64,000 nucleotides of DNA from an uncultured Acidobacteriota bacterium (GTDB lineage Bacteria; Acidobacteriota; Blastocatellia; RBC074), in NCBI GenBank assembly GCA_963796275.1, contig CAWCKY010000006.1, forward strand, positions 2,752,001-2,816,000, written 5' to 3'. Positions 34,867-56,486 of this stretch are shown piece by piece. The translations under genes and the position numbers were made by a program. Every line of letters starts with the position of its first letter. The first letter of the stretch is position 1. The notes beneath the pieces are model-generated. The model saw only the letters and a list, made by a program, of their open reading frames with translations, did no database searches and was not told the origin of the DNA.

Positions 34867-35065
34867 CTTCAGGTGCCCGTCGCCGTTTTCTTGACGACGG
34901 GAGAATAGGGAAGCGGGTGAAATTCCCGCACGGTCCCGCCACTGTGAAGGCCTTTTTATTCTCTCTCACCAATTGCGCCACTGCGTGAAAGCGCGGGAAG
35001 GCTTGGAGGGAAAGACACGCCGGTTATATTCGGCGTAAGGCTCAAGTCAGGAGACCTGCCTGAAG
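34867..35065 (+). promoter_or_regulatory. cobalamin riboswitch 1
   Basis: AATAGGGAAGCGGGTGAAATTCCCGCACGGTCCCGCCACTGT, GCCACTG...GGGAAGG, B12 box AAGTCAGGAGACCTGCC; P1 CTTCAGG/CCTGAAG. Confidence 0.95.
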
Positions 35066-35283
35066 TTGGATCATGTGAACTCTTCGTGGAATGGGAGAAC
35101 AACATCTTGCTGAATCTATTCTCTACCTACAATTCTAGACATCATTTCACCATAGCAGCGTCAGGCTCATCTGCCTTTGGCCGCTAAAGCTGAAAGGGCG
35201 CGTTCGTGTTGATAATCGCCCTTGTGTGTCCGGGCTTTCGCCGGACTTCATCAGGGCTATTTCTCAGCTTGGGAGGTAATGGA

Positions 35284-38200
35284 ATGATCGTCTTTATTTC
35301 CGCGGCCGCGACCGAGCGACAGATGGTCGCCGCCGCGGCAAAGGGCCTGCCGGTCGAATTCCCCACAGTGTGGGCGCTCGATAGCGGTAAACTGCAATCG
35401 GATGCCGAGATCGATAACCTGCTGGCCAACATGGGCGCGGAGCCATTTGTCTTCGTAGTCCGGGTACTAGGCGGGAAAAGTTATTTTGAGCGTGGATTTG
35501 CACGGCTGCAGTCGTTCTGCCGTGAACGAAACCGCCATTTGATCGCAATCCCCGGAGATCAGAATCCTGACGCCGAATTGGATGCTATCTCCAACGTCCC
35601 GCTAGCGGCGGCGGCGAAGGCTTTTCAATATGCTCTGTCAAGCGGCCTCGAGAATTATGGAAACCTGCTGCGATATCTGGCCGACGTCTTTCTTTCCACG
35701 GCGTTCGGCTTCGAAGGGCCCACGCCCATCCCCGGCGCGGGGCTCTACCATCCGGGCGCGAGCGACCGTGCGGTTTGCGCAAATCTGAGCCTGGCGGAAT
35801 TCAAGCGTCTTTATTGGCGCGACCAACGGCCCGCCATCGGCATTCTCTTTTACCGGGCGTACTGGCAGAGCGGGGACATGGCGGTCGTGGACGGGCTGAC
35901 GCGCGAGATCGAGGCGCGCAACTACAACGTCCTTCCCGTGTTCTGTTACAGCCTGCGCGAAGAGTCGGCAAAGGCCGTCTCCGCCAACATCTTTTCCAAA
36001 TATTTCGTGGATGACGCCGGGCCGACGGTCGATTGCGTGATCAGCCTGTTCAGTTACGCAGTGGCCGAACTCCTGCGAGAAGAGAGAACCACCACGGCCG
36101 GCGGCCAGATGGCGGACTACTTGCGGACGCTCGCCATCCCTTTCGTCCAGGGGATCACCACTTCGTTGACTGTTTCTGAATGGAAAGAAAGCGCCGCGGG
36201 GCTGCCGCCATGGGACGCGGCGACGAAAGTTGTCATGCCGGAATTCGACGGCCGCATCATCGGTCCGGTTGTCGGGTTTCGTCAGCAGGGCGAATACGGC
36301 GCCGCGAGTTCGGAAACGGAGTCTTACACGGTGATCCACACCGAGCGAGCGCGGGCATGCGTCGATTTGGCGACTCGCTACTCCACGCTTCGCCGTAAGC
36401 CGAATGCGGAAAAAAGACTCGCGCTCGTCCTGACCAATTTCGCGAATCGGCACGGGCGCATCGGGAGCGCCGTCGGATTAGATACGCCGGCCTCCGTCGT
36501 CCACTTGATGCAAGGATTGCGCGAGCGCGGGTACCACGTGGCTGATATCCCCGAAAGCGGGGACGCATTGATGGAGGAACTGATCGCCCTCGGCGGGTAC
36601 GACCGGGAGTATTTGACCGAAGAGCAGATGCGACTCTCGAAGGCGGGTTACACCGACGCGGAGTACGCAGATTGGTTCGCGCAATTTCCGGCGGAGACGC
36701 AGGCCGCACTGAAAGAAGAATGGGGCGCTCCGCCGGGCCGTGTGTTCCGGGGCGCCGATCGGATTTATATCGCGGGGAAGTTGTACGGCAACCTCTTCGT
36801 GATGATTCAGCCGCCGCGCGGGTTCGGGGAAAACCCCCTCGCCGTCTATCACAGCGGCGACCTCATCCCGACGCACCATTATCTCGGCGCCTATCACTGG
36901 CTGCGCCATGTGTTTCGGGCGGACGCACTGGTCCAATGCGGGAAACATGGGACGCTGGAATGGTTGCCGGGCAAGGGCATCGGCCTGACCGAAGGATGCT
37001 ATCCCGAACTCGCCATCGGCGACCTGCCCGTCTTCTACCCCTTCATCATCAATGATCCCGGCGAGGGGACGCAGGCGAAGCGGCGAATGCATGCCTGCAT
37101 TATCGACCACCTGATCCCACCTATGACGCAGTCGGAGACGTATGACGAGCTCGCGCGACTGCAACAACTGCTGGGAGCCTACGCCAACGCCGAGCGTATC
37201 GATCCCGACAAATTACCCCTGATTCAGCAGGAAATCTGGAACGCCGTGGTGGCCGCCAATCTCCACCAGGATTTAGGCGTCGACGCGCAGCCGGACGACG
37301 ACGCGTATGGCGAATTTATCCAGCACATTGATGGCTATCTGTGCGAGATCGGCGATCTGCAGATCCGCGATGGCCTGCACGTCCTGGGACAGATGCCCAA
37401 GGGTGAACAACTCATCAACCTGGCGCTGGCCTTAATCCGGCTCGATTCACCGGGCTTTACCGGAATCCGCCGCGCCATCGCCGAAGACTACTGTCTGGAT
37501 TACGACGCGCTGAGCGAAGTGGCCAGCCTCGGCGCCGTGTATCGTGGCGAATTCCCTCCATTTCCGTCACAAGTGGCGGACGGCGACCCGGTCCGCACGA
37601 ATGGCGATTTGCTTCTACGTCTGGAGAAGGCCGCGCGGTTACTCGTTACGCGTTTGTCGGAAACAGCATTTGCGTGGGAAGACATCGGCGCGGTTTTGGC
37701 CTACTGCAATCTGCCTTCCGAAGGTAAAACAAGCGAGACGCTCCGATGGCTGACCGAGAGAATCATTCCCGATTTGCGCCGCACGAATGAAGAGTTGCTT
37801 AACCTGTTCGACGGTTTAAGCGGCGTCGCCGTGCCCGCCGGGCCGAGCGGCGCGCCGACCCGCGGCATGACCAATATTCTTCCGACCGGGCGCAACTTTT
37901 ATTCGGTCGACGTCCGGGCGATTCCGTCGCCCTTCGCCTGGCAGGTCGGGCAGCGGCTCGGGGGCGATTTGCTGAAACAGTATCTGGAGCGCGAGGGGCG
38001 CTATCCAGAAGCCATCGGCCTCACCGTCTGGGGCACGTCCAATATGCGAACGCAAGGCGATGATATCGCGGAGATCCTATGGCTATTGGGCGTCCGCCCG
38101 ATCTGGCAGCCGGAGAACCGGCGGATCGTCGATCTGGAAGTCATCCCGCTATCTGAATTGAACCGGCCGCGAGTGGACGTCACGGTCAGGATGTCGGGCT

Positions 38201-39099
38201 TTTTCCGCGACACGTTTCCGGGGGTGGTGCGGTTGCTCGACCGGGCGATCAACATGGTCGCCGATCTGGAAGAGTCGGAAGACGAAAATTTCGTGCGCAG
38301 GCACGTCCGCCAGGACGAGGCGAAATTTACGAGAGATGGCGCGGAGCGGGCAAAAGCCAAAGCACGTTACCGGTTGTTTTCCAACAAACCGGGTTCGTAC
38401 GGCACGGGGATTTTAACGGCCATCACCGAGTCGAATTGGGAGACAAGCGACGACCTTGCGCGCATATACCTCGAGTGGGGGGGATTCGCCTACACCCGTG
38501 ACCTGTATGGCGAGCCCGCGCACGACGAATTTCAATACAGGCTCGCGGGAACGGAGATCGCGGCGCAGAACAAAGACAATTATGAGCACGACATTTTTGA
38601 CAGCGACGATTACATGCAGTTTCACGGCGGAATGATTGCAGCCATAAGATCGCTCGCCGGGTGCGATCCGATGGCTGTATTGGGCGATTCGGCGAATCCT
38701 GAAACGGCGAGGAATCGCGATGTCAGGGAAGAAGCGCGCCGTGTCTTTCGCGCCCGTGTGGCAAATCCGAAATGGCTGCGCGCGATCAGGCGACATGGCT
38801 ATAAGGGCGCGCTCGAGATGGCGGCGACGGTGGACTACCTGTTCGGCTATGACGCGACGGCGCAGGTCATTGACGACTGGATGTATCAACAGGTGGCGGA
38901 AAAGTACGTGCTCGACGAAACGAGCCGTGAGTTTTGCGAGCGTAGCAACCCGTGGGCGTTGCGGGAGATGACGGGGCGCTTGCTCGAGGCGGCTGAGCGC
39001 GGGATGTGGTCGGACCCGGACCCGGAGACGCTGGAGCACTTGAAAACGGCCTACCTCTCGAACGAAGGGCTTCTCGAAGCGAAAGGTGAGCGGCAATGA
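35284..39099 (+). CDS. cobN: cobaltochelatase subunit CobN
   Basis: PEFDGRI, GKHGTLEWLPGK, DHLIPP, LPTGRNFYS, RVDVTVRMSGFFRD, NPKW, VDYLFGYDAT; GGAGG before the ATG at 35284. Confidence 0.95.
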   Translation: MIVFISAAATERQMVAAAAKGLPVEFPTVWALDSGKLQSDAEIDNLLANMGAEPFVFVVRVLGGKSYFERGFARLQSFCRERNRHLIAIPGDQNPDAELDAISNVPLAAAAKAFQYALSSGLENYGNLLRYLADVFLSTAFGFEGPTPIPGAGLYHPGASDRAVCANLSLAEFKRLYWRDQRPAIGILFYRAYWQSGDMAVVDGLTREIEARNYNVLPVFCYSLREESAKAVSANIFSKYFVDDAGPTVDCVISLFSYAVAELLREERTTTAGGQMADYLRTLAIPFVQGITTSLTVSEWKESAAGLPPWDAATKVVMPEFDGRIIGPVVGFRQQGEYGAASSETESYTVIHTERARACVDLATRYSTLRRKPNAEKRLALVLTNFANRHGRIGSAVGLDTPASVVHLMQGLRERGYHVADIPESGDALMEELIALGGYDREYLTEEQMRLSKAGYTDAEYADWFAQFPAETQAALKEEWGAPPGRVFRGADRIYIAGKLYGNLFVMIQPPRGFGENPLAVYHSGDLIPTHHYLGAYHWLRHVFRADALVQCGKHGTLEWLPGKGIGLTEGCYPELAIGDLPVFYPFIINDPGEGTQAKRRMHACIIDHLIPPMTQSETYDELARLQQLLGAYANAERIDPDKLPLIQQEIWNAVVAANLHQDLGVDAQPDDDAYGEFIQHIDGYLCEIGDLQIRDGLHVLGQMPKGEQLINLALALIRLDSPGFTGIRRAIAEDYCLDYDALSEVASLGAVYRGEFPPFPSQVADGDPVRTNGDLLLRLEKAARLLVTRLSETAFAWEDIGAVLAYCNLPSEGKTSETLRWLTERIIPDLRRTNEELLNLFDGLSGVAVPAGPSGAPTRGMTNILPTGRNFYSVDVRAIPSPFAWQVGQRLGGDLLKQYLEREGRYPEAIGLTVWGTSNMRTQGDDIAEILWLLGVRPIWQPENRRIVDLEVIPLSELNRPRVDVTVRMSGFFRDTFPGVVRLLDRAINMVADLEESEDENFVRRHVRQDEAKFTRDGAERAKAKARYRLFSNKPGSYGTGILTAITESNWETSDDLARIYLEWGGFAYTRDLYGEPAHDEFQYRLAGTEIAAQNKDNYEHDIFDSDDYMQFHGGMIAAIRSLAGCDPMAVLGDSANPETARNRDVREEARRVFRARVANPKWLRAIRRHGYKGALEMAATVDYLFGYDATAQVIDDWMYQQVAEKYVLDETSREFCERSNPWALREMTGRLLEAAERGMWSDPDPETLEHLKTAYLSNEGLLEAKGERQ

Positions 39100-41153
39100 G
39101 CTCAGAAACCAGGATAGATGCTTTGACGGCGGCGGGCGCGGCGCATTTTCCGTTCTCCGCCATTGTCGGGCAGGACGTAATGAAACGGGCCCTGATCTTC
39201 AACGCGATCGACCCTTCCATCGGGGGAGTCCTGATCGCCGGGACGCGCGGCACGGCTAAGTCGACGGCGGCGCGCGCCATTGCGGCACTGCTTCCCAAGA
39301 TCGAGGTCGTTGACGGAGATGCGTTCAACTCCGCGCCTTCTCGCGGGGCGACGGAGAAAGTAGTTCGCGTCCCCGCGCCCTTCGTCAATTTGCCGGTCGG
39401 CGCGACGGAAGACCGTGTGCTGGGCGCGCTGGACGTCGAACGGGTCTTGCAATCGGGTGAACGGCGTTTTGAGCCCGGCCTGCTCGCCCGAGCGAATCGC
39501 GGCGTGCTCTATGTGGACGAGGTCAATCTGTTGCCGGATCATCTGGTCGACGTGCTTCTCGACACCGTCGCGATGGGCGTGAATCGAGTTGAGCGGGAGG
39601 GCGTTTCGTTTACCCATGAAGCGCGCGTCATCCTGATCGGCACGATGAACCCCGAGGAGGGAGAGCTTCGTCCCCAGCTGCTCGACCGATTCGGCCTGTC
39701 AGTCGCGATCGCCGGATATTTCGAGCCGGGGCTGCGCAAAGAAGTCGTGCGCCGTCGGATCGCGTACGAGGCCGGCCCTGACTCGTATCTTGAACACTGG
39801 AGGGCTTCGGAAAACGAGCTCTCTGCGCGCATCGATGGGGCCCGTGAGCGCCTCGACTCTGTGACGGTTCCGGATGGAGCGCTCGACGCGATTGTTGAAG
39901 CCTGCGCCGAGGCGAGGGCCGACGGCTTGCGCGCAGACATCGTAGCGTACAAAACCGCGCGCGCAGCCGCCGCGTTCGAAGGGCGCACGGAGGTAAACGC
40001 CTCTGACCTGGAAGAATCCCTGGCGCTGGCGCTCGCCCATCGCCGCCGCGCGCCGCGCGCCGCTCCCGAGTCGGGAGGCGGTTCCGAACCGCCGCCTGAC
40101 GACTCGACAGGTGAAAGGCAACGCGGCCGCAGTTCCAATCCGCAGACGTCGTCGTCGCGAAATCCTGGTTCACCTTCGGAGTCGGAAAAGACGCCCCGGC
40201 GCTTTGACCAATCACAGCAGAGTAAGGACGCGAACCAGACTCCTGGCGACGGGGCTCTGGCGGTCGGGGAGCGAGTCTTCTCCATCGGCGGCGGCTTCGA
40301 TCTGGGGCGAGTGATCTCGCGCCGCCAACCGCGCATGACCGCCACGGTCGTCGTCGGTAAAGGATCGTATGCCCCCTCGCGCAGGTCGGGACAGGTCGTG
40401 CGGTCCGTGACGCCGCGACCTTCCGAAAAGCTGGACCTGGCCATCGACGCCACGATTCGCGCCGCGGCGCTCGACGCGGTTTCCGGCGACGCGCGCAAGC
40501 CGGCGCGGTTATCGATAGGCCCCGCGCATTGGCGGCATAAACAGCGGCGGACTCGCACGCGCAATTTCGTTCTATTGCTTGTTGACGCTTCGGGGTCGAT
40601 GGCCGCGCTCGAGCGCATGCAGGCCGCAAAGGGCGCGATCTGCTCGCTGCTCGAAGACTCTTATCAACGGCGCGATGTGGTCGCGCTAATCGCCTTTCGC
40701 GGCGAGGTGGCGGAAGAACTCCTGCCGCCCACCCGCAGCCCGGTCTTCGCTTACCGTAGGCTCGCGCAACTCCCGACCGGAGGCAGAACGCCCCTGGCCG
40801 AAGGGTTGAAGCGGGCGCGCGCTGTGATTGGGCGGCAGGAGCGCAAAGGCGAACGAGTACGGCCATTTTTGGTTGTGGTTACGGACGGGCGGGCGACCTC
40901 GCCGGCAGCGGGCGCGTTCGAGGCCGCGCTGGCGGAAGCGGCGCGCCTTAGCCGGATGCAAATACGAGGCTTGTGCATCGATATGGAAGTCGGTCGGATA
41001 CGGTTCGGCATGGCGCGGGCGCTGGCGCGAGAGCTGAATGCCGCCTACGCGCATATTCATGACCTTCCGCCGAAAGATTGGGGTCAGGTGATACACGAAT
41101 GGGTCGCCGCCGAGAATCACGCTGGAGCCGCGAAAGGCACCAATAATTTCTGA
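39096..41153 (+). CDS. ChlI/ChlD-like AAA+ and VWA chelatase subunit (partner of CobN)
   Basis: FPFSAIVGQ, GTAKST, YVDEVNLL, NPEEGELRPQLLDRF, low-complexity linker, DASGSM, GGRTPL, TDGR; overlaps the cobN stop. Confidence 0.92.
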   Translation: MSSETRIDALTAAGAAHFPFSAIVGQDVMKRALIFNAIDPSIGGVLIAGTRGTAKSTAARAIAALLPKIEVVDGDAFNSAPSRGATEKVVRVPAPFVNLPVGATEDRVLGALDVERVLQSGERRFEPGLLARANRGVLYVDEVNLLPDHLVDVLLDTVAMGVNRVEREGVSFTHEARVILIGTMNPEEGELRPQLLDRFGLSVAIAGYFEPGLRKEVVRRRIAYEAGPDSYLEHWRASENELSARIDGARERLDSVTVPDGALDAIVEACAEARADGLRADIVAYKTARAAAAFEGRTEVNASDLEESLALALAHRRRAPRAAPESGGGSEPPPDDSTGERQRGRSSNPQTSSSRNPGSPSESEKTPRRFDQSQQSKDANQTPGDGALAVGERVFSIGGGFDLGRVISRRQPRMTATVVVGKGSYAPSRRSGQVVRSVTPRPSEKLDLAIDATIRAAALDAVSGDARKPARLSIGPAHWRHKQRRTRTRNFVLLLVDASGSMAALERMQAAKGAICSLLEDSYQRRDVVALIAFRGEVAEELLPPTRSPVFAYRRLAQLPTGGRTPLAEGLKRARAVIGRQERKGERVRPFLVVVTDGRATSPAAGAFEAALAEAARLSRMQIRGLCIDMEVGRIRFGMARALARELNAAYAHIHDLPPKDWGQVIHEWVAAENHAGAAKGTNNF

Positions 41154-41156: not shown

Positions 41157-42161
41157 ATGTCACTTTTGATGGCCAAAATGAAAGTCGATCTGCGCGCCGG
41201 CAGGAGGGCGAGTCGACGGAGCCACGCCTGGGCTTTTCTTCTCTTTGCGATGTTGCTGATCGCGGCGTGTGGGACCCCCTCACGGCAAAACCAAACGACC
41301 GCGAGCAATGGGGCCTTCCCACGAACAGTGAAAGTGGGGGATATGGAAATCAGCATCCCGCGTAAGCCCGAGCGGATTGTTTCATTGACCCCCAGCAATG
41401 ACGAGATTCTATGCGCGCTGGTGGACGAGAAGCGTATCGCAGGCCTCTCGAAATTTTCTCAGGATCCGGCGACGAGCTATGTCGCGGAGGCGGCCCGCCG
41501 AATTAACGTCTTCGTCGACCGCAACGCCGAACAAGTCGTTTCGCTGCGGCCGGAACTGGTGCTGGCGGCGCGCTATACCAAAATCGATTTGAAGGCCTTG
41601 CTGGCGGAGACTAAGACGCCGCTCGTCGTCACGATCGAATTTCGAAACTTCGCGGACGTCGAATCCAACCTGCGCTTGATCGGCCAGGCGGTTGGAGAAG
41701 AAGGCCGCGCCGAGTCCGTGATCGGCGAGATGCGGCGTAAGTTGGCCGAAGCACGCTCCCGCCTGCGACCGGGAAGGGCAGGGCTGCGCATGCTATACCT
41801 CGCGTCGGGAAACTTCAGCGCCGGTTCCAGGACCTCGATCCACGAAATATTGGCCGCCGCCGGATTCAAAAACGCCGCGGCGGAAGCCGGGGTAAAAGGA
41901 CACGTCAAACTTGCGCCAGAACAAATCACCGAGATCGACCCGGATGTAATTTTGATCGCCTCCGGGTACGAACGCGACCGAGGCTTTCGGCAGGCGCTCG
42001 AAAACGACGCGCAGCTTTCTGCCATCAAGGCAATCAAAGACAAAAGAATTGTCGAGGTTCAGGCGCGCGGCGTGTTGACCGTCTCGCACCACGTAGCCGA
42101 CGCCGTCGCCGAGCTCATCGAAGCCCTCAATCAACTGCAAATGATTAAAGAAGGAGAATAG
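41157..42161 (+). CDS. BtuF-like substrate-binding lipoprotein (copy 1)
   Basis: LIAAC lipobox, PERIVSLTPSNDEIL, EQVVSLRPELV, IDPDVIL. Confidence 0.85.
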   Translation: MSLLMAKMKVDLRAGRRASRRSHAWAFLLFAMLLIAACGTPSRQNQTTASNGAFPRTVKVGDMEISIPRKPERIVSLTPSNDEILCALVDEKRIAGLSKFSQDPATSYVAEAARRINVFVDRNAEQVVSLRPELVLAARYTKIDLKALLAETKTPLVVTIEFRNFADVESNLRLIGQAVGEEGRAESVIGEMRRKLAEARSRLRPGRAGLRMLYLASGNFSAGSRTSIHEILAAAGFKNAAAEAGVKGHVKLAPEQITEIDPDVILIASGYERDRGFRQALENDAQLSAIKAIKDKRIVEVQARGVLTVSHHVADAVAELIEALNQLQMIKEGE

Positions 42162-42163: not shown

Positions 42164-42736
42164 ATGGCGGAATTGAAGCCGATCACGGGCGCGCGCGAAA
42201 GCCTCGAGGACTTGAGTGGGACCGTGACGGAATACAGCTACGTGACGCCGGGGGAAGAGACGATGCGCGAATTGACCAGGATTTTATTTGAAGAGCATTG
42301 GCGCGAGATCATCGTCGGCCCATGTATCGAAGGCGCGGTTTTTGAGATCCGCTTTGAGCAGGCTCCGAAGAAAGTCTCCTACCTCGACGGCTACCTGACG
42401 GTCGATCTCGGGCACTGGCATTTTCATCTCTGCGTTGGCGCGCATAAAGGCGCGCGCTCGGCCGAACTGGCCGCCAAACGGCGCGTGGCGAAGCTAGCTT
42501 TCTTTGAAACGAAGGACAATCGCTGTATTGGTGGCAACAGCTACGGCATTCGGATGTGGAACGGGTTCGGCGAGCAGATGACGACCGTTTTTCTGCCGAA
42601 CCCCCGTTTGTCCGATGAGATGAAGGTTTTGAAGGAGCCGCAATGGGATCGATTGCAGCTGTGGTTTGAGCTGCGAAACCGGTTTTTGGGAGAGCCGATC
42701 CCGGAATCATTTATGTCGGGAAGCGCTCCTGGCTGA
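42164..42736 (+). CDS. uncharacterised protein, possible HemS/ChuX-like fold
   Basis: GPCIEGAVFE, DGYLTV..GHWHFHLCVG, SYGIRMWNGFGEQMTTVFLPNP; AAGGAG RBS; 2 bp after the upstream stop. Confidence 0.7.
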   Translation: MAELKPITGARESLEDLSGTVTEYSYVTPGEETMRELTRILFEEHWREIIVGPCIEGAVFEIRFEQAPKKVSYLDGYLTVDLGHWHFHLCVGAHKGARSAELAAKRRVAKLAFFETKDNRCIGGNSYGIRMWNGFGEQMTTVFLPNPRLSDEMKVLKEPQWDRLQLWFELRNRFLGEPIPESFMSGSAPG

Positions 42737-43628: not shown

Positions 43629-43786
43629 GCGAATTGAAGAATTTGAAAGATCCGAAATGAGTGGATGTGATTGTAGTTTGAATCTGGCTATTGATTGCAG
43701 GAGACGCCCCCGAATTTATTCAAGCCGGAGGGGGCTCGGAGCGAAGAGCTACAAGTCCCGGTTCCGGTCTGCCATTAACCTAGGAG

Positions 43787-43971: not shown

Positions 43972-44004
43972 ATCGCCACCGACTTTCGATGGGAAAGAAA
44001 GGAC

Positions 44005-48346: not shown

Positions 48347-49439
48347 GATAATCGAAGCGCCTAGGGCCAGTACCGAGCGAGCCTCGCGCGGCCTCTTCAC
48401 ACAACGGGTCGCCGGGTACTTTGCCGTGGTCGCGATCGTGTTGCTCATCGCGTTCATGGCCGGGATCGCCATCGGGAGCGCGTCCGTGCCGGCTGCGATA
48501 GTCGTGCGCGTATTAGCTTCCCATGCTTTGCCGCACGGATGGGTTGACCTTAGTGATATTCCGGAGCCGCAACAGGTCATTGTCTGGTTGATTCGGACGC
48601 CGCGCGTCATCGTAGCGGCGCTCGTCGGCGCGGGACTGGCGGTCGCAGGCGTGCAGATGCAAGGTCTGTTCCGCAACGCGCTGGCTTCACCCGACATCGT
48701 CGGGACGAGTTCCGGAGGCGTGCTCGGCGCCGTCCTGGCTCTCGCGACGGGGTTGGCGATGCGATCGATTTTTTATCTGCCGGTGATGTCTTTCGCAGGG
48801 GCCTTGCTCGCGCTCTCTCTGGTCTACGCCATCGCCACGCGTCGCGGGCGCACGCCCGTCTCCACGCTGCTCTTGACCGGCGTCGCGTTCAACGCATTGA
48901 TCGGCGCGATCACGTCGTTCGTGATCAGCCTGCAATGGGTTCGGTGGGAGGTGGCGCAGGAGATTCTTTTCTGGATGATGGGCGGCCTGGACAGCCGCAC
49001 CTGGAAGCACGTCTGGCTGGCGCTGCCCTGTGTCGTGATCGGCTTGATCGTCGCGCTCGTCTATTCGCGCGATCTTGACGTCCTGCTGCTCGGCGAAGAG
49101 ACGGCGCTCGCGGTAGGCGCAGATATAGAGAAGGTGAAGCGGATCATCCTGACGAGCGCGGCCTTACTCACCGGAGCCGCTGTCGCCGTCAGCGGCCTGA
49201 TCGGTTTTGTCGGTTTGGTCGTGCCGCACATCGTGCGCCTGATCATCGGGCCAAAACACAGATATTTATTGCCAGCCAGCGCGTTGACGGGGGCGGCTTT
49301 TTTGATTCTGACAGATATTCTGGCTAGAACGATAAACCGTCCGGAAGAGATCAGACTGGGAATTGTGACGGCCATACTGGGCGCGCCGTTTTTTCTGTAC
49401 CTGCTGCTACGCCACTATCGCACCATCGGCATAGGATAA
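48330..49439 (+). CDS. btuC: FecCD/BtuC family ABC permease
   Basis: RTPR, QGLFRNALASP, LGEETA, GLIGFVGLVVPHIVR, GIVTAILGAPFF. Confidence 0.88.
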   Translation: METGSKIIEAPRASTERASRGLFTQRVAGYFAVVAIVLLIAFMAGIAIGSASVPAAIVVRVLASHALPHGWVDLSDIPEPQQVIVWLIRTPRVIVAALVGAGLAVAGVQMQGLFRNALASPDIVGTSSGGVLGAVLALATGLAMRSIFYLPVMSFAGALLALSLVYAIATRRGRTPVSTLLLTGVAFNALIGAITSFVISLQWVRWEVAQEILFWMMGGLDSRTWKHVWLALPCVVIGLIVALVYSRDLDVLLLGEETALAVGADIEKVKRIILTSAALLTGAAVAVSGLIGFVGLVVPHIVRLIIGPKHRYLLPASALTGAAFLILTDILARTINRPEEIRLGIVTAILGAPFFLYLLLRHYRTIGIG

Positions 49440-49462: not shown

Positions 49463-50104
49463 ATGGAATCTGAAAATCATACAAATGTCGATCAATCCAC
49501 GAGAGAGGAGACAGACGAGCGCCACGCCGAACAAATGCGGCGCCGCAAAGCCTCCTATGACGCGCGCAAGGCGGCGGCGACGCAAGAAAAAGGTTTGATC
49601 ATCGTCAACACAGGCACGGGCAAAGGGAAAACCAGCGCTGCCTTGGGGATGGTCTTTCGCGCGCTCGGACACGGCATGCGCGTCGGCGTGGTGCAATTCA
49701 CGAAAGGCGCAATTGAAACCGGCGAGGCCGCTTTCGCCCAACAACTGGGAGGGCAGATTGATTTCTACACTCTCGGCGAAGGCTACACCTGGGAGACGCA
49801 GGACCGCGAGCGTGACAGCGCAGTAGCTAGTAAGGCCTGGGAGCAGGCCCGCGCGTTGATCGAAGACCCGCGCTATCAGATCGTCGTGCTCGACGAACTC
49901 AACATCGTCCTCAAATACGGGTACGTGCCACTGGACGAAGTACTAGAAACCCTGCGCCGCAAGCGCGAGGACTTGCACGTCATCATTACGGGGCGCAACG
50001 CGAAAGACGAACTGATCGCGCTGGCCGACCTGGTGACCGAGATGAAGCTGATCAAACACCCCTATAAGAGCGGGATCAAAGCCCAAAAGGGGATCGAGTA
50101 TTAA
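49463..50104 (+). CDS. cobO: cob(I)yrinic acid a,c-diamide adenosyltransferase (CobO/BtuR)
   Basis: TGTGKGKTSAALG, VVQFTKG, GEGYTW, LDELN, IITGR, AQKGIEY. Confidence 0.95.
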   Translation: MESENHTNVDQSTREETDERHAEQMRRRKASYDARKAAATQEKGLIIVNTGTGKGKTSAALGMVFRALGHGMRVGVVQFTKGAIETGEAAFAQQLGGQIDFYTLGEGYTWETQDRERDSAVASKAWEQARALIEDPRYQIVVLDELNIVLKYGYVPLDEVLETLRRKREDLHVIITGRNAKDELIALADLVTEMKLIKHPYKSGIKAQKGIEY

Positions 50105-50604
50105 TGGCGAATACCGACAGAAAGAGCGCTGAGAAACCTTTGCCCGAAGGTATACCGAATCGATTTGTGTTCGTGAAGCGCGCGGACGAGGAGGTGAAGA
50201 AGACTCGCGTCGTGGAAGGACAGCTGCTCGTCTGTCAGGGGTGCTGCTGCGGCAAGACAGAGCGCGGAATGCCGCCGCTACCGCTGGACGATTTTAAACA
50301 ACAATGGAAAGAGCGTGGAGTGCGTTTGCGCGTTCACCTGACCGTCACTGGCTGTTTAGGCCCATGTCCACTGGCGAATGTCGTGCTGATCCTGTTTGCG
50401 GGGGAGTCCGTCTGGCTTCATTCGATCAACACTCCCGAACACGTAACGGCGATCTACGACTATCTGGAAGCGATGCTGTCGGCTGAAAAATATCTTCCGC
50501 CGGGAGGGATTCTCGCCGATTGTCATTTCAACCGCTTCATTTTTGATACGGCCGCAGGCGACGCATGGCTGAACGATGACGATTGGAAGCAGGTAAAAGC
50601 CTGA
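50104..50604 (+). CDS. thioredoxin-like (2Fe-2S) ferredoxin-domain protein
   Basis: VCQGCCCG...TGCLGPC; start overlaps the cobO stop. Confidence 0.75.
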   Translation: MANTDRKSAEKPLPEGIPNRFVFVKRADEEVKKTRVVEGQLLVCQGCCCGKTERGMPPLPLDDFKQQWKERGVRLRVHLTVTGCLGPCPLANVVLILFAGESVWLHSINTPEHVTAIYDYLEAMLSAEKYLPPGGILADCHFNRFIFDTAAGDAWLNDDDWKQVKA

Positions 50605-50641: not shown

Positions 50642-52177
50642 ATGACGGCGAAAGCCTTAATGGTATTGGGTACAGCTTCCCACGCGGGCAAATCGCTCAC
50701 GGCGGCGGCGCTGTGCCGTATTTTGAAGCAGGACGGCTTCAACGTTGCGCCCTTCAAGGCTCAAAACATGGCGCTCAACTCCTTTGCCACGCGCGAAGGC
50801 CACGAGATCGGGCGGGCGCAGGCGATGCAGGCGCAGGCCGCCGGCATCGAGCCGCACGTCGACATGAACCCGATTCTGCTCAAGCCGACTTCGGAGGTGG
50901 GCTCACAGGTCGTTATCAACGGCAAAGTTTTTGGCAACTATCGCGGCGCGGAATATTACCGTCTCAAACCGATGTTGCTCGACGCGGTGGCCGCGGCGTA
51001 CCAACGTCTGGCGTCGCGACACGAAATCATCGTGCTGGAAGGCGCGGGCTCGCCCGTCGAGATGAACCTCAAGGACCGAGACGTGGTGAATATGAAAATG
51101 GCCGAGATCGCGGACGCGGCCTGCCTGCTGGTAACGGACATCGACCGCGGCGGCGTCTTCGCCTCGCTGGTCGGCACTTACGCCCTGCTCGAACCGCACG
51201 AACGGGCGCGTTTCGGGGGCTTCCTGATCAACAAGTTTCGCGGCGACGTGAGCCTTTTCACGCCCGGCGTTGAATATCTGGAAAACCGTCTGTCGCAACC
51301 TTGCCTGGGCGTAATCCCGTACCTGCGCGATCACGGCATCGATGATGAAGACAGCGTGTCGCTCGAACGCCGCGCGGCGAGGCCTTTGCTTGATAACGAA
51401 GACCAGTTGCGCATCTGCGTGGTCGGGTTGCCATACCTTTCCAATTTCACAGACTTTACTGCGCTTGAGAACATTTCCGGCGTAGTCGTTTATTACACGC
51501 GTAAGCCGGAAGAGTCGCGATCTGCCGACGTGCTCGTCCTGCCCGGGAGCAAAAACACCATTCCCGATTTGCTCTGGCTCAGAGAGAATGGGTGGGGGGA
51601 AAGGGTCCATTCCCATGTCGCAGCCGGCAAGCCGCTGGTGGGAATCTGCGGTGGATTCCAAATGCTGGGGCGTGAAATCCGAGACCCGCACCACGCGGAG
51701 AGCGACATCGAATCGGTTCCGGGGTTGGGGCTGCTGGATGCGACAACAACACTCGCCAATGAAAAGATCACTCGTCAGGCGACAGCGAGGTTACTCGCGC
51801 CGTCGCGCTTTTCTCAAAATGACGCGGGACCTATGTTCAGCGGCTATGAAATTCACCTTGGGGAAACGAGCCTGGGAGCCGGGATCCGGCCGCTCTTTCA
51901 ACTCACGCGGCTTGGCGACATCGAAATCCACAACGATGGCGCGGTCAATGATGACGGCCGTGTCATGGGCACATACCTGCACGGGCTCTTTGATTCGGCG
52001 GAAGGGCTGGCTTTATTGCTGACCCACTGGCGGAAACTCTGCGGGAAGAAAATTTCGGCGGCGCCGGTCGTCGACCCGCTCGCCGAACGGGAAAGGCGGT
52101 ATGACATCCTGGCGGAGCATTATCGGCGCAATCTGAGGATGGACGTTATTCACCGGATGATAGATGGAAAAAAATAA
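50642..52177 (+). CDS. cobQ: cobyric acid synthase
   Basis: GTASHAGKS, PFKAQNM, MNPILLKP, EGAGSP, SNFTDF, GICGGFQMLG, GYEIH, GTYLHGLF. Confidence 0.96.
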   Translation: MTAKALMVLGTASHAGKSLTAAALCRILKQDGFNVAPFKAQNMALNSFATREGHEIGRAQAMQAQAAGIEPHVDMNPILLKPTSEVGSQVVINGKVFGNYRGAEYYRLKPMLLDAVAAAYQRLASRHEIIVLEGAGSPVEMNLKDRDVVNMKMAEIADAACLLVTDIDRGGVFASLVGTYALLEPHERARFGGFLINKFRGDVSLFTPGVEYLENRLSQPCLGVIPYLRDHGIDDEDSVSLERRAARPLLDNEDQLRICVVGLPYLSNFTDFTALENISGVVVYYTRKPEESRSADVLVLPGSKNTIPDLLWLRENGWGERVHSHVAAGKPLVGICGGFQMLGREIRDPHHAESDIESVPGLGLLDATTTLANEKITRQATARLLAPSRFSQNDAGPMFSGYEIHLGETSLGAGIRPLFQLTRLGDIEIHNDGAVNDDGRVMGTYLHGLFDSAEGLALLLTHWRKLCGKKISAAPVVDPLAERERRYDILAEHYRRNLRMDVIHRMIDGKK

Positions 52178-53132
52178 CGCCCTTCTGATATTCACGCTGG
52201 CGTACGCGCTGGATCGGCTGATCGGTGATCCGGAATGGGCGCCGCATCCCGTGCGTTGGATGGGGCGGCTGATCCAGAGCGGTGAAAGCGTCCTTCGTCG
52301 ATTCATTCGTACACCCCGGGCCGAATTCATCGGCGGCGTGTCGTTGAGTTTGCTCGTGGTCGGGTCTTTCGGACTAGGGAGCTGGCTTTTGTTGGGATGG
52401 CTGAGCGGCCGTAATCAAACTCTGACATTTGTAGTGTCGCTCTATTTCGCCGTGACGACGCTCGCTACCCGGTCGTTGTTGGATGAGGCGCGCGCCGTAA
52501 GGCGGTTACTATTGAATTCCGATCTGCTCGGGGCGCGACGGCAGGTCGCACGAATCGTCGGGCGGGATACACAGGCGCTGGACGAGCCGGAAGTGACGCG
52601 GGCCGTGATCGAAACGCTCGCCGAAAGCGCTTCGGACGGCATCGTCGCTCCGTTGTTCTACCTGGCGATCGGCGGCGTCCCTGCCGCGCTGGCGTACAAA
52701 GCGGTCAACACGCTCGACTCAATGATCGGGCATCGGGATACGCGATACGAATTCTTCGGTAAGTTCGCGGCGCGACTGGATGACGTGGTGAATTTCATCC
52801 CGGCCAGGCTAACCGCTCTGCTGTTTGTACTGTCCGCATGGGCGCTGCGTCTCGACTGGCGCGGCGCATGGCGCGTCCTGGGGCGTGACAGTTCGAAACA
52901 CAAAAGCCCGAACGCCGGACGCCCAGAAGCGGCGATGGCGGGCGCGCTCGCTGTGAGGCTCGGCGGGAAGAACTATTACGACGGAGAGCCACATTACGGC
53001 CCATATCTGGGGGATGCCAAGCGTCCGCTCGATGATCGGGCGTTGGGATGCGCGCTGCGGATGACCGCATGCGCGTCTTTGTTGATGTTCGTGATCTGTC
53101 TGACTGCGCAGCTTTTCCTCTTCGGTTGGTAG
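52164..53132 (+). CDS. cbiB: adenosylcobinamide-phosphate synthase
   Basis: IGDP..HPVRWMG, IVGRDT, ETLAESASDG, YKAVNTLDSMIG, SPNAG.PEAAMAGAL. Confidence 0.95.
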   Translation: MEKNNALLIFTLAYALDRLIGDPEWAPHPVRWMGRLIQSGESVLRRFIRTPRAEFIGGVSLSLLVVGSFGLGSWLLLGWLSGRNQTLTFVVSLYFAVTTLATRSLLDEARAVRRLLLNSDLLGARRQVARIVGRDTQALDEPEVTRAVIETLAESASDGIVAPLFYLAIGGVPAALAYKAVNTLDSMIGHRDTRYEFFGKFAARLDDVVNFIPARLTALLFVLSAWALRLDWRGAWRVLGRDSSKHKSPNAGRPEAAMAGALAVRLGGKNYYDGEPHYGPYLGDAKRPLDDRALGCALRMTACASLLMFVICLTAQLFLFGW

Positions 53133-53184: not shown

Positions 53185-54300
53185 ATGGCAGTGAAAAAGG
53201 TGTCGAATAAGTTGGAGCCTGCCGAAGCCACCCATGGCGGGCGGGTGTATGAGGCTGCGCGGCTTTGGGGGATTGCGCCCGAAGAAGTGATCGACTTCAG
53301 CGCGAACATCAATCCGCTCGGGCCGCCGCCGGGAGCGCTCGCAGCGATCGAGAACTGTCTCGGGCCAGCCAGGCTTCGAGCTTACCCCGACTCATACGCC
53401 TTCATTTCGGCGCTGGGGGAGAAACACGGCGTCGCGCCCGATGAAATCGTTGTCGGGGCCGGCTCGGCGGCCCTGATGTTCGCCGCGTTGCGCGCGCTGC
53501 TGCCGGCGACAGCGCTCGTGCTGGAGCCGGGCTTCGATGAATATTTTCGCGCTTGCGCGGCTGTCAAAGCTCAAGTAACGCGTATAAGGCTTACGGAAAA
53601 GAACAATTTCGCGACGGACTTCGGCGCCTTGGTACGCCTCATCGAAACGCGTCAATGTGATCTTGTCATTTTGAACTCACCTCACAATCCGACCGGGCGT
53701 TCGTATGCGAGAGAGGACGTGCTGGCGCTCCTAGATGTGGCGGAGGCGAACGACGTCGCAGTGCTGCTGGATGAGGCGTTTATTGATTACGCCCCGCAGG
53801 CCAGCCAGCTCAGAAATGCGGTATCAAAAAAGCGGGTTGTCGTGTTGCGCTCACTTACCAAGTTTTACGCCATCCCCGGGTTGCGTGTCGGATATGCCGT
53901 TTGTGCGGCCGAAATGGCGGCGACGATAAGAAAGCAGATCGACGCGTGGCCTGTTTCTACCATCGCGCTGGAAGCAGGGCGCGCGGCCCTGGCAGCGGGG
54001 GAGTATGAGGCGGAGACCCGCCGTCTCAACACGCAGGCTCGGGAAGAATTCGCGGCGGCGTTGCGGGAAATCGGGCTATTCGTTTTCCCCTCCGAAGCCA
54101 ACTTTTTGCTGGTCAAGCTATCACAGGGTTCAGGCGCGGAACTGGCTCGATGGCTCGAATCCGCTCGAATTTTGATTCGGCGGTGTAACTCATTTTCGGG
54201 GCTGGGCGACGCTTACATCCGGCTCGCCATCAGATCGAGAGAAGACAATTTGCGTTTGGTTTCCCTGATAGAAGCCTGGCTGATGCGGAGCGAACCATGA
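53185..54300 (+). CDS. cobD: L-threonine-O-3-phosphate decarboxylase
   Basis: HGG, DFSANINPLG, PHNPTG, DEAFID, RSLTKFYAIPGLRVGY. Confidence 0.9.
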   Translation: MAVKKVSNKLEPAEATHGGRVYEAARLWGIAPEEVIDFSANINPLGPPPGALAAIENCLGPARLRAYPDSYAFISALGEKHGVAPDEIVVGAGSAALMFAALRALLPATALVLEPGFDEYFRACAAVKAQVTRIRLTEKNNFATDFGALVRLIETRQCDLVILNSPHNPTGRSYAREDVLALLDVAEANDVAVLLDEAFIDYAPQASQLRNAVSKKRVVVLRSLTKFYAIPGLRVGYAVCAAEMAATIRKQIDAWPVSTIALEAGRAALAAGEYEAETRRLNTQAREEFAAALREIGLFVFPSEANFLLVKLSQGSGAELARWLESARILIRRCNSFSGLGDAYIRLAIRSREDNLRLVSLIEAWLMRSEP

Positions 54301-54869
54301 TGACTCTAGTGCTGGGCGGGGCGCGCAGCGGCAAGAGCCGTTACGCGCAATCGCTGTGCGCTTCATCATCGAGTGTGACCTACGTCGCCACGGCGCGCGC
54401 TGAGGACGGCGAGGGCGATCAGGAAATGCGAGAGCGCATCGCGCGCCACCGCGCGGATCGCCCGGCCGAATGGCAGACCGTCGAAGAGCCTCTTTACCTT
54501 TCGCGAGCGATCCGCGAAGCGCCGATCGAAGCGACTTTGTTGATCGACTGCGCCACAATCTGGATCTCCAACCTGATGTGGGAATTCAGGGAGGAGTCGG
54601 CAGCGCAACAAAACAGGCTGATTTTTGTGGCTATTGATCAGCTGATCGATGATGTGCGGTGGCGCGCCGAAAACTCCGAAATCGCGGGTGAGGTGATCAT
54701 TGTCAGCAATGAGGTCGGCGGCGGTCTTGTGCCGGAACATCCCGTTGCGCGCGCATTTCGTGATCTACAGGGCTTCGCCAATCAACGCCTGGCGCAGGCC
54801 GCCGACAATGTAGTCTTTGTCATCGCGGGATTGCCTCTACGGTTGAAACCGGAGGCTCCCGTGACATGA
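54297..54869 (+). CDS. cobU: adenosylcobinamide kinase / guanylyltransferase
   Basis: GGARSGKS, RIARHR, LIDC, VSNEVG, FRDLQG..NQ, AGLP. Confidence 0.95.
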   Translation: MMTLVLGGARSGKSRYAQSLCASSSSVTYVATARAEDGEGDQEMRERIARHRADRPAEWQTVEEPLYLSRAIREAPIEATLLIDCATIWISNLMWEFREESAAQQNRLIFVAIDQLIDDVRWRAENSEIAGEVIIVSNEVGGGLVPEHPVARAFRDLQGFANQRLAQAADNVVFVIAGLPLRLKPEAPVT

Positions 54870-54900: not shown

Positions 54901-55479
54901 ATGAATAGCATTGCCACAAAACATGGCGACGGTGGGCAAACGCGGCTGATCGGAGGGGCTCAGGTTTCGAAATCCGATCTTCGTGTCGAAGCTTACGGTG
55001 CGATAGACGAACTCGGAGCGGCCATGGGGTTTGCGCGCTCCATCTGCGGCGACGAAGAGGTCAACCAGCTGACGAAAGCGATTCAGCGGGAGCTTTTCCT
55101 GGTCGCCGGCTCGACCGCCAATCCCCAGGCGCTTCAAAAACAACCGCCCGACGTGACGCCCGAAATGGCAGATCGTTTAACCAAAGAAGTTCATCGTCTT
55201 GAAAACCTCGAAGGCATTCTCGCAGACTGGGCGCTGCCCGGCGACCATGCGCCGGCGGCCGCCTACGACCTGGCGCGGTCCGTTTGCCGGCGCGCTGAGC
55301 GAGGCGTAGTTCGCCTGCGGGAAGCGGGCGAGGAGGTCAGTGACGAAGTCATTCGCTATCTCAATCGCCTTTCAGATCTACTGTGGTTGCTTGGGCGAAC
55401 GCTGGAGTTGCGCGCGGGAGTTGATTCCAGATTGCGCGACGAGGCCCGCGGCGGGAATCAATTTTCGAGGGCATGGTGA
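54901..55479 (+). CDS. pduO: PduO-type corrinoid adenosyltransferase
   Basis: TKHGDGGQT, RVEAYGAIDEL, ARSVCRRAER, YLNRLSD. Confidence 0.92.
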   Translation: MNSIATKHGDGGQTRLIGGAQVSKSDLRVEAYGAIDELGAAMGFARSICGDEEVNQLTKAIQRELFLVAGSTANPQALQKQPPDVTPEMADRLTKEVHRLENLEGILADWALPGDHAPAAAYDLARSVCRRAERGVVRLREAGEEVSDEVIRYLNRLSDLLWLLGRTLELRAGVDSRLRDEARGGNQFSRAW

Positions 55480-55727
55480 TGTTGCGCAAATTGATGAGGC
55501 TTATTTTTCCAGACAAACGGGCGCGGCGCGCCTGTGAGGCCTGCGGAAATTCATTCCGCTGCGGCGCCTCTCTCAAAGGTTGCTGGTGCTTTCAAGTGAA
55601 ACTCAGACCGGGCGCGAGAGAAGAGTTGCGCGGGAAATATAAATACTGCCTGTGCGCCGACTGCCTGGCGCCCTTCATAATAAATCACGCGCCCGAATCC
55701 GACCAATCTGGGGCGACTTCTCAATGA
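55473..55727 (+). CDS. cysteine-rich CWC family protein
   Basis: CEACG..FRCG....CWC...CLCADCL. Confidence 0.8.
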   Translation: MVMLRKLMRLIFPDKRARRACEACGNSFRCGASLKGCWCFQVKLRPGAREELRGKYKYCLCADCLAPFIINHAPESDQSGATSQ

Positions 55728-55850
55728 TTGACGAGACGATAAATCGCATTACCCCACCCGCTCAAGATTGGCTTGATCAGGGGCGACAAACCAGTTGACG
55801 GAAGTGGCGTTGTATATGACGGCCGTCATTCTGGCGCGCTTAAACTTGCT

Positions 55851-56486
55851 ATGAGCGAAACAAATTCTTCAAACCGGTTGCGCCTGTATTTGATTCGGCA
55901 TGGCGAGATCGAGTCATTGGCCGCCGGTAAGCTGATCGGGCATACGGATGTCTCGTTGTCAGACCTTGGCGTGGAACAGGCGCGGCTCATCGCGAAAAAA
56001 ATGGACCACATGCAATTGGACGCCATTTATTCCAGCGACCTCCGGCGCGCCTTTCATACGGCCGAAATACTAGCTGGAAGTAAGCGGATGACGGTGCGGT
56101 CGTCGCATATCTGGCGCGAGATCAGCATGGGGTCATGGGAAGGTCGCGCCCTCTCCGATCTAATCGAAGAAGCGCCAGAGCACGTCTCCTTGCTTTTCAG
56201 TGACCCGGGTTCATTTGTGTATCCGGGTGGGGAATCATTCGCAGGCTTCGCAACGCGAATCCAGGAAGCACTGGAACGATTGTTACAAACCCATTTGAAT
56301 GGCGAAATCGCGCTGGTCGCCCACGGCGGCGTTTGCCGTGCAATCATAGGCGGCGTTTTGGGAATATCCATGCAGAATTGGCTTCGTGTGGCGCAGCGTT
56401 ATGGCTGTTTAAACGTGATCTCCTGGTTTGACTCTCATCCCGTGGTGGAACTATTGAATTATAGTTCGGAGGAGTTTCCTGCGTAG
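55851..56486 (+). CDS. cobC: histidine phosphatase (alpha-ribazole / adenosylcobalamin phosphatase)
   Basis: LIRHGE, YSSDLRRA..TA, REISMGSWEG, PGGES, VAHGG; last gene of the cob cluster. Confidence 0.8.
   Translation: MSETNSSNRLRLYLIRHGEIESLAAGKLIGHTDVSLSDLGVEQARLIAKKMDHMQLDAIYSSDLRRAFHTAEILAGSKRMTVRSSHIWREISMGSWEGRALSDLIEEAPEHVSLLFSDPGSFVYPGGESFAGFATRIQEALERLLQTHLNGEIALVAHGGVCRAIIGGVLGISMQNWLRVAQRYGCLNVISWFDSHPVVELLNYSSEEFPA

Follow-up and report, generated by a model that had tools for sequence, protein, structure and literature searches.

An apparently surplus late cobaltochelatase in an acidobacterium that probably makes its own cobamides, and its possible role in the salvage of cobalt-free corrinoids

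Why should a bacterium keep a late (class I) cobaltochelatase, CobN, beside a corrinoid importer in a stretch of DNA that holds no gene for building the corrin ring? We address this question for the window G000:C6:2752001-2816000, a 64,000-nucleotide stretch of contig C6 from the genome of an uncultured Acidobacteriota bacterium of the class Blastocatellia (G000; 94.7% complete, 5.2% contaminated), in which one riboswitch-led operon (operon 1) encodes CobN, a ChlI/D fusion, the binding lipoprotein BtuF1, DUF7676 and a NicO permease, and a second (operon 2) encodes a corrinoid importer and late-pathway enzymes. A preliminary description of this DNA had proposed that the genome lacks ring synthesis and that the cell is a pure precursor salvager. 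Profile searches of the whole genome, using NCBIfam/TIGRFAM models with curated cut-offs, Pfam and Rfam RF00174, refute the first proposal, on the criterion set in that description, by revealing a riboswitch-led ring operon on a second contig, C7, which is also present in a genome of the same genus (G001), and the second does not hold in view of the eight PF00590 matches of the genome (six on C7) and the CbiC and CbiA genes on C7. To judge from its gene content, the organism very likely makes its own cobamides, with operon 2, the C7 ring operon and CobS/CobT forming a cobalt-early de novo route. As an explanation of the whole we favour, with slightly less than even confidence, a cobamide-making acidobacterium that has a surplus CobN module for the salvage of cobalt-free corrinoids.

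The six C7 matches to PF00590 (tetrapyrrole methylase) lie within C7:1036501-1043608, as does the single G000 match to PF02570 (CbiC/CobH). The ring operon itself (L010:5141-15627, where L010 is C7:1028000-1047999, the 20-kilobase (kb) stretch around it) is on the minus strand behind a cobalamin riboswitch, and its ten genes were identified by NCBIfam models in the order cobA, cbiE, CbiX-CbiC, CbiD, CbiL, CbiF, CbiG, CbiH-CbiJ, CobW-like GTPase and CbiA/CobB, with scores of 380 bits for CbiD, 339 for CbiF, 408.8 for CbiG and 427.8 for CbiA/CobB, and of 179 bits, under the cut-off, for the CobW-like GTPase. The CbiX-CbiC fusion (562 amino acids (aa), L010:12565-14253) has a class II, CbiX-long-type chelatase domain in its N-terminal part. 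In addition, CobT and CobS are encoded at C6:871045-872798, while sirohydrochlorin would be supplied by a trio of neighbouring genes at C6:729980-734910, which encode a second CobA, a NirA-type reductase and a SirC-like dehydrogenase. Nine of the ten members of the cobalt-early Cbi set (L/H/F/G/D/J/E/T/C/A) are found in G000, cbiE being frameshifted in the assembly. Both loci are carried by G001, the CobN cluster at 65-82% and the ring operon at 74-88% protein identity to G000. We take C6 and C7 to come from one organism because their guanine-plus-cytosine (GC) contents (54.8 vs 54.6%) and tetranucleotide frequencies (r = 0.997) match, and because G001 holds the CobN cluster and the ring operon at similar divergence. 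The GC content of contigs C1 and C3 of G000 is 53.4-53.5%, compared with 54.6-55.0% in C2, C6 and C7, and their tetranucleotide correlation with C6 is 0.973-0.979 rather than 0.997; regional heterogeneity or a mixed bin could account for this offset.

Frameshifts interrupt both cobA and cbiE in the G000 assembly, and in comparison with the intact G001 genes they amount to one extra C apiece at about L010:15388 and 14365. We treat these frameshifts as artefacts of assembly because the G001 genes are whole, the extra base is missing from soil contigs, and the assembly is rich in frame breaks. The soil contigs were taken from Logan for four soil runs of one study, which hold shares of 0.31-0.37 of the sampled words (runs with shares of 0.10 or less were left out); they represent a close population and were used for the two indel sites alone, with no inference on habitat or strain. 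The extra base is missing at 14365 in all four runs and at 15388 in each of the three runs that cover this position. As a control of assembly quality, the 21 matches to RND pumps (PF00873) were found to make up 12 genes, five of which are broken, with at least eight frame breaks in about 37 kb; broken genes are seen, for example, at C3:917935-920992, C3:391501-394583, C6:94440-97518, C6:1346165-1349304 and C2:575088-578169. Both frameshifts in the ring operon consist of an extra C right after CATG, and this may be a systematic base-calling error.

Judged by its genes, the ring operon is of the cobalt-early type, an assignment that is based on the presence of CbiX and the lack of CobG and CobZ, since CbiD and CbiG alone are not decisive. 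In the search of G000 for oxygen-dependent ring contraction, which covered CobG and CobZ, no CobG was found over the cut-off and the best CobZ score was 23.6 bits. A CobG candidate at C6:729980-731566 (207 bits; cut-off 234.8) was rejected, as it scores 468 bits with the NirA model and adjoins the second CobA and the SirC-like gene, an arrangement in keeping with siroheme supply. CbiX places cobalt in the ring at the level of sirohydrochlorin, and a cobalt-early route makes no cobalt-free corrin; oxygen-independent ring contraction, moreover, requires cobalt inside the ring. On a cobalt-early route there would therefore be no home-made hydrogenobyrinic acid a,c-diamide, and CobN would be surplus to de novo synthesis. 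According to the accessible text of Shelton et al. (PMC6461909), annotated gene content does not separate the cobalt-early from the cobalt-late route.

Rejection of the pure salvager means that most of operon 2 is to be seen as a B12 importer joined to the later steps of de novo synthesis. This operon would link the uptake of corrinoids to the steps from cobyrinic acid a,c-diamide to adenosylcobinamide-GDP, the ring would come from the separate C7 operon, and CobT and CobS would complete the cobamide; both operons of the window would be turned off by B12 through their riboswitches. For operon 1, the salvage of a cobalt-free corrinoid is the most likely job that we can propose, albeit tentatively. 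When B12 is low, hydrogenobyrinic acid or its a,c-diamide from cobalt-late producers would enter via the receptor and BtuF-BtuCD, and DUF7676 would hold this cobalt-free corrinoid in the cytoplasm. Co(II) would be brought in by the NicO permease, and CobN with its ChlI/D motor would drive cobalt insertion with adenosine triphosphate (ATP), so that the metallated product could join the late pathway through the ferredoxin and CobO. More tentatively still, the gene set suggests that CobN-ChlI/D, the binding protein, DUF7676 and the permease might constitute a dedicated, B12-repressed salvage module and hence a third class of precursor salvage. This narrower form of salvage survives because a cobalt-early ring operon gives CobN no substrate and because relatives that lack ring synthesis nevertheless keep CobB, CobN, CobO, CobQ, CobU and CobS.

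These relatives were sought in a class sample of 41 genomes, G000 included, and in a phylum sample of 201 genomes, each at least 90% complete. CobN scores over the cut-off in three genomes of the class sample (G000, G035 and G039), G001 having two CobN fragments at contig ends; CobQ does so in five of the 41, and CbiD and CbiC are each found in two (G000 and G001). Across the phylum sample, CobN is present in 7/201 genomes (G000, G035, G086, G115, G151, G191 and G227) and CbiC in 3/201 (G000, G191 and G227), so that four of the seven CobN holders (G035, G086, G115 and G151) are without CbiC, as is G039 in the class sample. G035 and G039, which are 99% complete in two contigs apiece, contain neither CbiD nor CbiC and have one TP_methylase each, with a score like that of the RsmI-type gene of G000. 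CobB/CbiA passes the cut-off in G039, G086, G115 and G151, and G035 has a homologue of CbiA at a distance of 5 kb from its CobN; CobS and CobU are both present in G035, G039, G115 and G151 but not in G086, a genome that is flagged as unpublished and on which everything said here of G086 depends.

The arrangement of the genes in these relatives bears on the same question, because a riboswitch precedes the CobN operon in three of the four CbiC-less holders of the phylum sample (G086, G115 and G151). In G086 (L043) the order is riboswitch-receptor-PduO-CobN-ChlID, and in G115 (L044) BtuC is followed by two riboswitches and then by CobQ-CobN. G151 (L045) has CbiA, a weak riboswitch (31.6 bits) and then BtuF, BtuD, BtuC, a ferredoxin-CobN fusion and ChlI/D. 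One replicon of G035 carries CobN-BtuF1-CobO and its other replicon a riboswitch followed by CbiB-CobD-receptor-ferredoxin-BtuF-BtuC-BtuD-CobQ. The ring-less relatives therefore hold the gene set of the salvage idea, plus CobB, whereas G000 itself does not fit; the idea in its preliminary form thus gains some support from ring-less CobN holders that have CobB and an importer or cobQ, and fails for the ring-making source genome. In the G001 cluster, the Acido-Lenti-1 RNA motif occurs as an inverted pair (L039:9555-9599 and 9691-9735) between BtuC and CobO; no match to this motif is seen at the BtuC-CobO junction of the window, which measures 23 bases.

The window protein on which this argument turns bears the CobN signature in its sequence. 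It covers positions 27-1222 of the 1226 in the TIGR02257 profile, passes the equivalog cut-off and, in the genome-wide profile search, is the single CobN/Mg-chelatase H gene of G000. Its start is probably ATG 35284 instead of GTG 35206, because the profile match sets in only at residue 27 and the 26 residues before it resemble read-through. The protein is about 1271-1297 aa long and has at most six Met per 120 aa, without a Met-rich insert; leaving aside the N-terminal extension, which is doubtful, no transmembrane (TM) segment is predicted in CobN. The frame of the ChlI/D fusion overlaps the end of the CobN gene, an arrangement of translational coupling, and the order CobN-ChlID-BtuF1 recurs in several families at 55-78% identity, with BtuF1 orthologues adjoining CobN/ChlID in G001, G035, G115 and L054. 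None of the five genes of operon 1 shows a frame break in comparison with L054. The notion that BtuF1 is a dedicated binder of the CobN substrate was weakened by the G001 cluster, which holds no other binding protein. Split CobN-like genes, in neighbouring frames of about 580-640 and 670-785 aa, are found in several relatives, at G008:C33, G014:C60, G028:C7, G029:C23, G033:C22 and C90 (two contigs) and G037:C10; their scores are far under the CobN cut-off, and they appear from sequence to be a separate two-piece CobN-like family.

Table 1. Features of the window on contig C6 and the leader of the ring operon on C7 (L010), with the scores that support each assignment
Feature	Position	Strand	Evidence
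Cobalamin riboswitch 1, leader of CobN operon	34854..35077	+	RF00174 118.5 bits, E 4.2e-29, model 1-189
CobN, class I (late) cobaltochelatase large subunit	35206..39099	+	TIGR02257 1183.6 bits vs cut-off 822.05
ChlI/ChlD-type AAA+ fusion, presumed CobN motor subunit	39096..41153	+	TIGR02442 689.9 bits, under cut-off 779.45; BchD and BchI models match too
BtuF1, cluster-A periplasmic binding lipoprotein, chelate-binding type	41157..42161	+	PF01497 (Peripla_BP_2) 98 bits; N-terminal lipobox LIAAC
DUF7676, ChuX/HutX/HemS-type fold, predicted cytoplasmic	42164..42736	+	PF24724 190 bits
NicO-family six-TM Ni/Co permease	42801..43628	+	PF03824 31.8 bits vs cut-off 27.7
Cobalamin riboswitch 2, leader of import/late-pathway operon	43777..43980	+	RF00174 108.5 bits, E 3e-26
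TonB-dependent receptor, BtuB role	43882..46485	+	Plug, barrel and N-terminal CarboxypepD_reg; TonB-B12 and haem-receptor models under cut-offs
BtuD-type ATP-binding cassette (ABC) ATPase	46504..47298	+	NF007082 (corrinoid ABC transporter ATPase) 281 bits, under cut-off
BtuF2, membrane-anchored binding protein	47327..48346	+	Binding-protein models; N-terminal TM anchor
BtuC-type permease	48291..49439	+	NF007081 327.7 bits, under cut-off
CobO/CobA-type corrinoid adenosyltransferase	49463..50104	+	NF004637 277.9 bits vs cut-off 185
Fdx166, 166-aa thioredoxin-like [2Fe-2S] ferredoxin-fold protein	50104..50604	+	CxGCCCG and GCLGPC motifs; structure model
CobQ, cobyric acid synthase	50642..52177	+	NF001989 609.5 bits vs cut-off 273
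CbiB, adenosylcobinamide-phosphate synthase	52164..53132	+	TIGR00380 251.6 bits vs cut-off 165.9
CobD, threonine-phosphate decarboxylase	53185..54300	+	TIGR01140 297.2 bits vs cut-off 290.55
CobU, adenosylcobinamide kinase/guanylyltransferase	54297..54869	+	NF004469 182.5 bits vs cut-off 161
PduO-type adenosyltransferase	54901..55479	+	TIGR00636 143.8 bits vs cut-off 108.45
CobC-like alpha-ribazole phosphatase	55773..56486	+	TIGR03162 156.1 bits, slightly under cut-off 162.9
Cobalamin riboswitch, ring-operon leader	L010:15770-16009	-	102.5 bits

The two cobalamin riboswitches, both full-length and on the plus strand, are the sole Rfam matches in the window. With the profile scores collected in Table 1, all for plus-strand features, they bear out the two B12 riboswitches and the genes that had been named beforehand, although the earlier gene list had overlooked DUF7676 (42164-42736) and a second BtuF-like protein. 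It was equally right that the window is without ring-synthesis genes, given that tblastn with the ten ring-operon proteins as queries finds no homologue in it at E <= 1e-5. The listed open reading frame of the receptor overlaps riboswitch 2, and for this reason we place its actual start probably after 43980. The NicO protein has an HX4DH motif, a His-rich loop and six hydrophobic segments; a second NicO paralogue of G000, at C6:1111644-1112327, is 51% identical to it. G000 also has a second PduO-type gene (C1:948494-949039). On the 3' side of the cluster, at 57807-60479 of the window, genes for a di-haem cytochrome c and a pyrroloquinoline quinone (PQQ)-dependent dehydrogenase beta-propeller are present, which seem unrelated to B12.

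Two proteins of the cluster emerge as candidate partners in corrinoid handling, the first of them being DUF7676, a name that is found nowhere in the literature searched. An AlphaFold model built from 28 sequences has a predicted local distance difference test (pLDDT) score of 87.1, and the 17 matches that Foldseek lists for it in the PDB at E <= 0.001 consist of ChuX, HutX and structural-genomics chains without a name, ChuX being the best (E 1.6e-5, probability 1.00, TM-score 0.52-0.62); the E-values of HemS, PhuS and ChuS are higher, from 1.8e-3 to 7.6e-3. Proteins of the ChuX/HutX/HemS type are cytoplasmic haem binders that act downstream of haem ABC importers. The motifs DGYLTV and WHFHLC are invariant in DUF7676, and the best 120 relatives, which include records from Acidobacteriota, Binataceae, Gammaproteobacteria and Methylococcales, are 55-90% identical to the window protein. 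The family is seen in five of the 201 phylum genomes, four of which are CobN holders, and at 421 places in a species-level genome collection. Among the best 80 of these loci, the genes within 10 kb include BtuC at 47, BtuD at 46, PduO at 17, CobN at 13 and CobO at 12, these counts being lower bounds because many contigs are short. The view of DUF7676 as specific to CobN, which lies near it at 13/80 loci as against 47/80 for BtuC, was accordingly dropped, and with its modelled fold and its place beside BtuCD/BtuF, PduO or CobO genes the protein is a candidate for a chaperone or processing enzyme of corrinoids in the cytoplasm.

The second is Fdx166, which the preliminary description had called a ferredoxin. 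No Pfam match supports that name, even at E <= 5, and sequence models are weak (NF041613, 28 bits vs 195), but the modelled structure (pLDDT 78.6) does have a thioredoxin-like [2Fe-2S] ferredoxin fold and matches Aquifex Fd4, Azotobacter FeSI, NuoE and HydC. CxGCCCG and GCLGPC are invariant, with cysteines C44, C47-49, C84 and C88. Moreover, Fdx166 forms the N-terminal part of the CobN frame in G191 (L047:9439-13797, 1452 aa) and in G151 (L045:7855-12570), and a CobN frame of 1470 aa in G227 suggests the same fusion. It is this gene fusion with CobN that ties Fdx166 to the chelatase. We infer that Fdx166 may give the electrons for the reduction of Co(II) to Co(I) before adenosylation by CobO.

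Several observations weigh against the proposal of a cobamide producer that also salvages cobalt-free corrinoids. On the side of synthesis, CbiT is not found over the cut-off in G000 (best 44.7 vs 78.3 bits) or in G001; it is present in the two other CbiC-bearing genomes, G191 and G227, fused in CobL-like frames, and in the genus of G000 and G001 a non-orthologous replacement may have taken its place. The 44.7-bit candidate, at C6:671926-672765, was rejected because it has an N-terminal hydrophobic leader and resembles an exported methyltransferase. The Logan contigs used to judge the frameshifts are 90-99% like the G000 stretch and so belong to a close population but a different strain. On the side of salvage, no measurements of soil corrinoids that lack cobalt are known to us. 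The literature searched (supplements of the cited papers excluded) holds no experimental test of their salvage. BtuF1 is the sole binding protein of the G001 cluster and may be a general corrinoid binder, the build of NicO is common to RcnA-type exporters and to importers, and no riboswitch is seen within the 20 kb around the CobN of G035. DUF7676, being far commoner beside BtuCD (47/80) than beside CobN (13/80), looks by its modelled fold and neighbours like a cytoplasmic corrinoid handler that is linked to import in general. Two further points of this kind, the CobW-like GTPase next to CbiA in the ring operon and the placement of DUF7676-CobN-ChlID directly beside a cbiE / CbiX-CbiC / CbiD ring operon at L060:5936-16456 (60-81% identity to the G000 proteins), would also fit a different role of CobN. 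L060 is labelled as a gammaproteobacterial metagenome-assembled genome, which suggests mis-binning or transfer.

In this different role, CobN-ChlI/D would serve the organism's own de novo pathway as a second, high-affinity entry for cobalt that is fed by CobW, with CbiX reserved for another purpose or for cobalt-replete conditions. A Synechococcus control that has CobN, CbiD and CbiC agrees with such a role, as does the statement, in the accessible text of Shelton et al. (PMC6461909), that neither route has a chelatase type to itself. We nevertheless consider it unlikely: G000 has no CobG or CobZ to contract a cobalt-free ring, its CbiX-long is fused to CbiC in a B12-controlled operon, CobN in ring-less genomes would be left unexplained, and the CobW-like protein was not found with the G000 query in the six other CobN holders. 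A CobW-like GTPase that travels with CobN was in fact dropped as a candidate, since only G001 matched among the seven genomes queried with the G000 protein (E <= 1e-30). CobN might also work backwards or exchange metals in the manner of HmuS/BtuS, stripping or swapping the metal of imported corrinoids or tetrapyrroles while NicO moves the metal. The homologue HmuS takes iron out of haem, as described in the accessible text of PMC12583661, NicO resembles RcnA-type exporters, and DUF7676 has a haem-chaperone fold, yet the same text gives HmuS as a membrane-anchored, ATP-independent protein of more than 1400 aa with a Met-rich insertion. The window CobN, which passes an equivalog cut-off, has neither TM segment nor Met-rich stretch and is coupled to an AAA+ ChlI/D gene, fits poorly with this alternative of the preliminary description, and we hold it to be improbable.

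The remaining explanations concern the state of the genome rather than the chemistry of the enzyme. The preliminary model, with no ring synthesis and life wholly on imported cobalt-free or under-amidated corrinoids that are metallated in the cell, is in keeping with a window that has no ring gene, with the missing CbiT and with two ring genes that are frameshifted in the assembly; ten ring genes behind the C7 riboswitch, intact in G001 and without the extra base in soil contigs, together with abundant frame breaks elsewhere in the assembly, leave it hardly credible. If the frameshifts were real and CbiT lost, the ring operon might instead be decaying, so that a producer is turning into a precursor salvager with CobN, the importer and the late genes as its core. 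Such decay would be consistent with the position of the frameshifts in cobA and cbiE, with which the operon opens, the absence of CbiT from both genomes of the genus, the rarity of ring synthesis in the phylum (CbiC in 3/201) and the existence of ring-less CobN holders. It is made improbable, however, by the intact cobA and cbiE of G001, the 74-88% protein identity over the aligned ring genes, the soil contigs without extra bases and the frame breaks that are common across the assembly. Operon 1 could, finally, be a redundant leftover or a recent transfer without a distinct role, as might be expected from the patchy distribution of CobN, which is over the cut-off in none of the 24 other genomes of the family that were searched and represented in G001 by contig-end fragments alone. 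This, too, has little probability, because five genes without a frame break against L054 in an error-rich assembly, a full-length riboswitch and the recurrence of CobN-ChlID-BtuF1 in several families at 55-78% identity speak against it.

The salvage of cobalt-free corrinoids by a cobamide-making organism, which we continue to favour, bears on an old loose end of B12 biology, namely the late, ATP-driven cobaltochelatase of cobalt-early or ring-less organisms. In the Acidobacteriota, CobN is found less often with ring synthesis than with the importer and CobB, CobO, CobQ, CobU and CobS, frequently behind a riboswitch, and the ChuX-like DUF7676 and the CobN-fused ferredoxin come forward as two candidate partners. 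If the proposal is true, a salvage module would explain "orphan" CobN in producers of the cobalt-early type as well as in B12 auxotrophs that make no ring, G035 and G039 included; and if cobalt-free corrinoids are traded, they would have to be added as a new currency wherever B12 cross-feeding or cobalt limitation in soils and mats is modelled. The accessible text of Shelton et al. (PMC6461909) reports cbiA/cobB in 46% of precursor salvagers and ascribes the chelatases annotated in genomes without ring synthesis to a likely overlap with chelatases for other metals. We infer that the ring-less CobN holders G035 and G039 are Chloracidobacterium-like. Because a cultured species of that genus, C. 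thermophilum, requires B12 in defined medium (PMC4376005), at least one ring-less CobN holder seemingly belongs to a cultured, B12-requiring genus, and a feeding experiment is possible.

A surplus late chelatase is a pattern already known from haloarchaea and green sulfur bacteria, and the window is another bacterial case. Haloarchaeal cobalt-early producers present the same paradox in the accessible text of Pfeiffer and Dyall-Smith 2021 (PMC8305020), with a late chelatase large subunit and an adjacent ChlID-like gene; here, by contrast, the host is a bacterium, and the genes lie in a riboswitch-led operon with a binding lipoprotein, a ChuX-like protein and a Ni/Co permease, beside an importer. 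In green sulfur bacteria, according to the accessible text of PMC8620254, genes for CobN-type chelatases lie together with those for corrinoid transport in organisms that use a cbiK/cbiD/cbiG route, and earlier speculation cited there has chelatase genes beside a B12 receptor metallating exogenous corrinoid with cobalt; the partners in those phototrophs, however, are BchI/BchD. HmuS/BtuS of Bacteroidota and the related B12-regulated clusters have a large subunit homologous to that of the window and are likewise linked to the uptake of tetrapyrroles through TonB, but the accessible text of PMC12583661 describes HmuS as a dechelatase that is anchored in the membrane, needs no ATP and carries a Met-rich insert, whereas the window CobN is soluble by sequence and has an AAA+ partner gene. 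DUF7676 is like ChuX, HutX, HemS and PhuS in fold and in its place beside a tetrapyrrole ABC importer, and differs from them in its low identity (13-18%), its B12 rather than haem context and its own WHFHLC motif. Cobinamide salvage through BtuBFCD and CobU/CobS/CobT/CobC, as given in the accessible text of Shelton et al. 2019 (PMC6461909), resembles operon 2 in its importer, nucleotide-loop genes and B12 control, but needs neither CobN nor CobQ, both of which are present in the window. There is also a close likeness to class I CobN with its ChlI/D partner of the TIGR02442 type, as the equivalog score is passed, the AAA+ fusion is coupled and control is by B12; what differs is that the genome is cobalt-early and without the textbook substrate, and that the partner is under the family cut-off.

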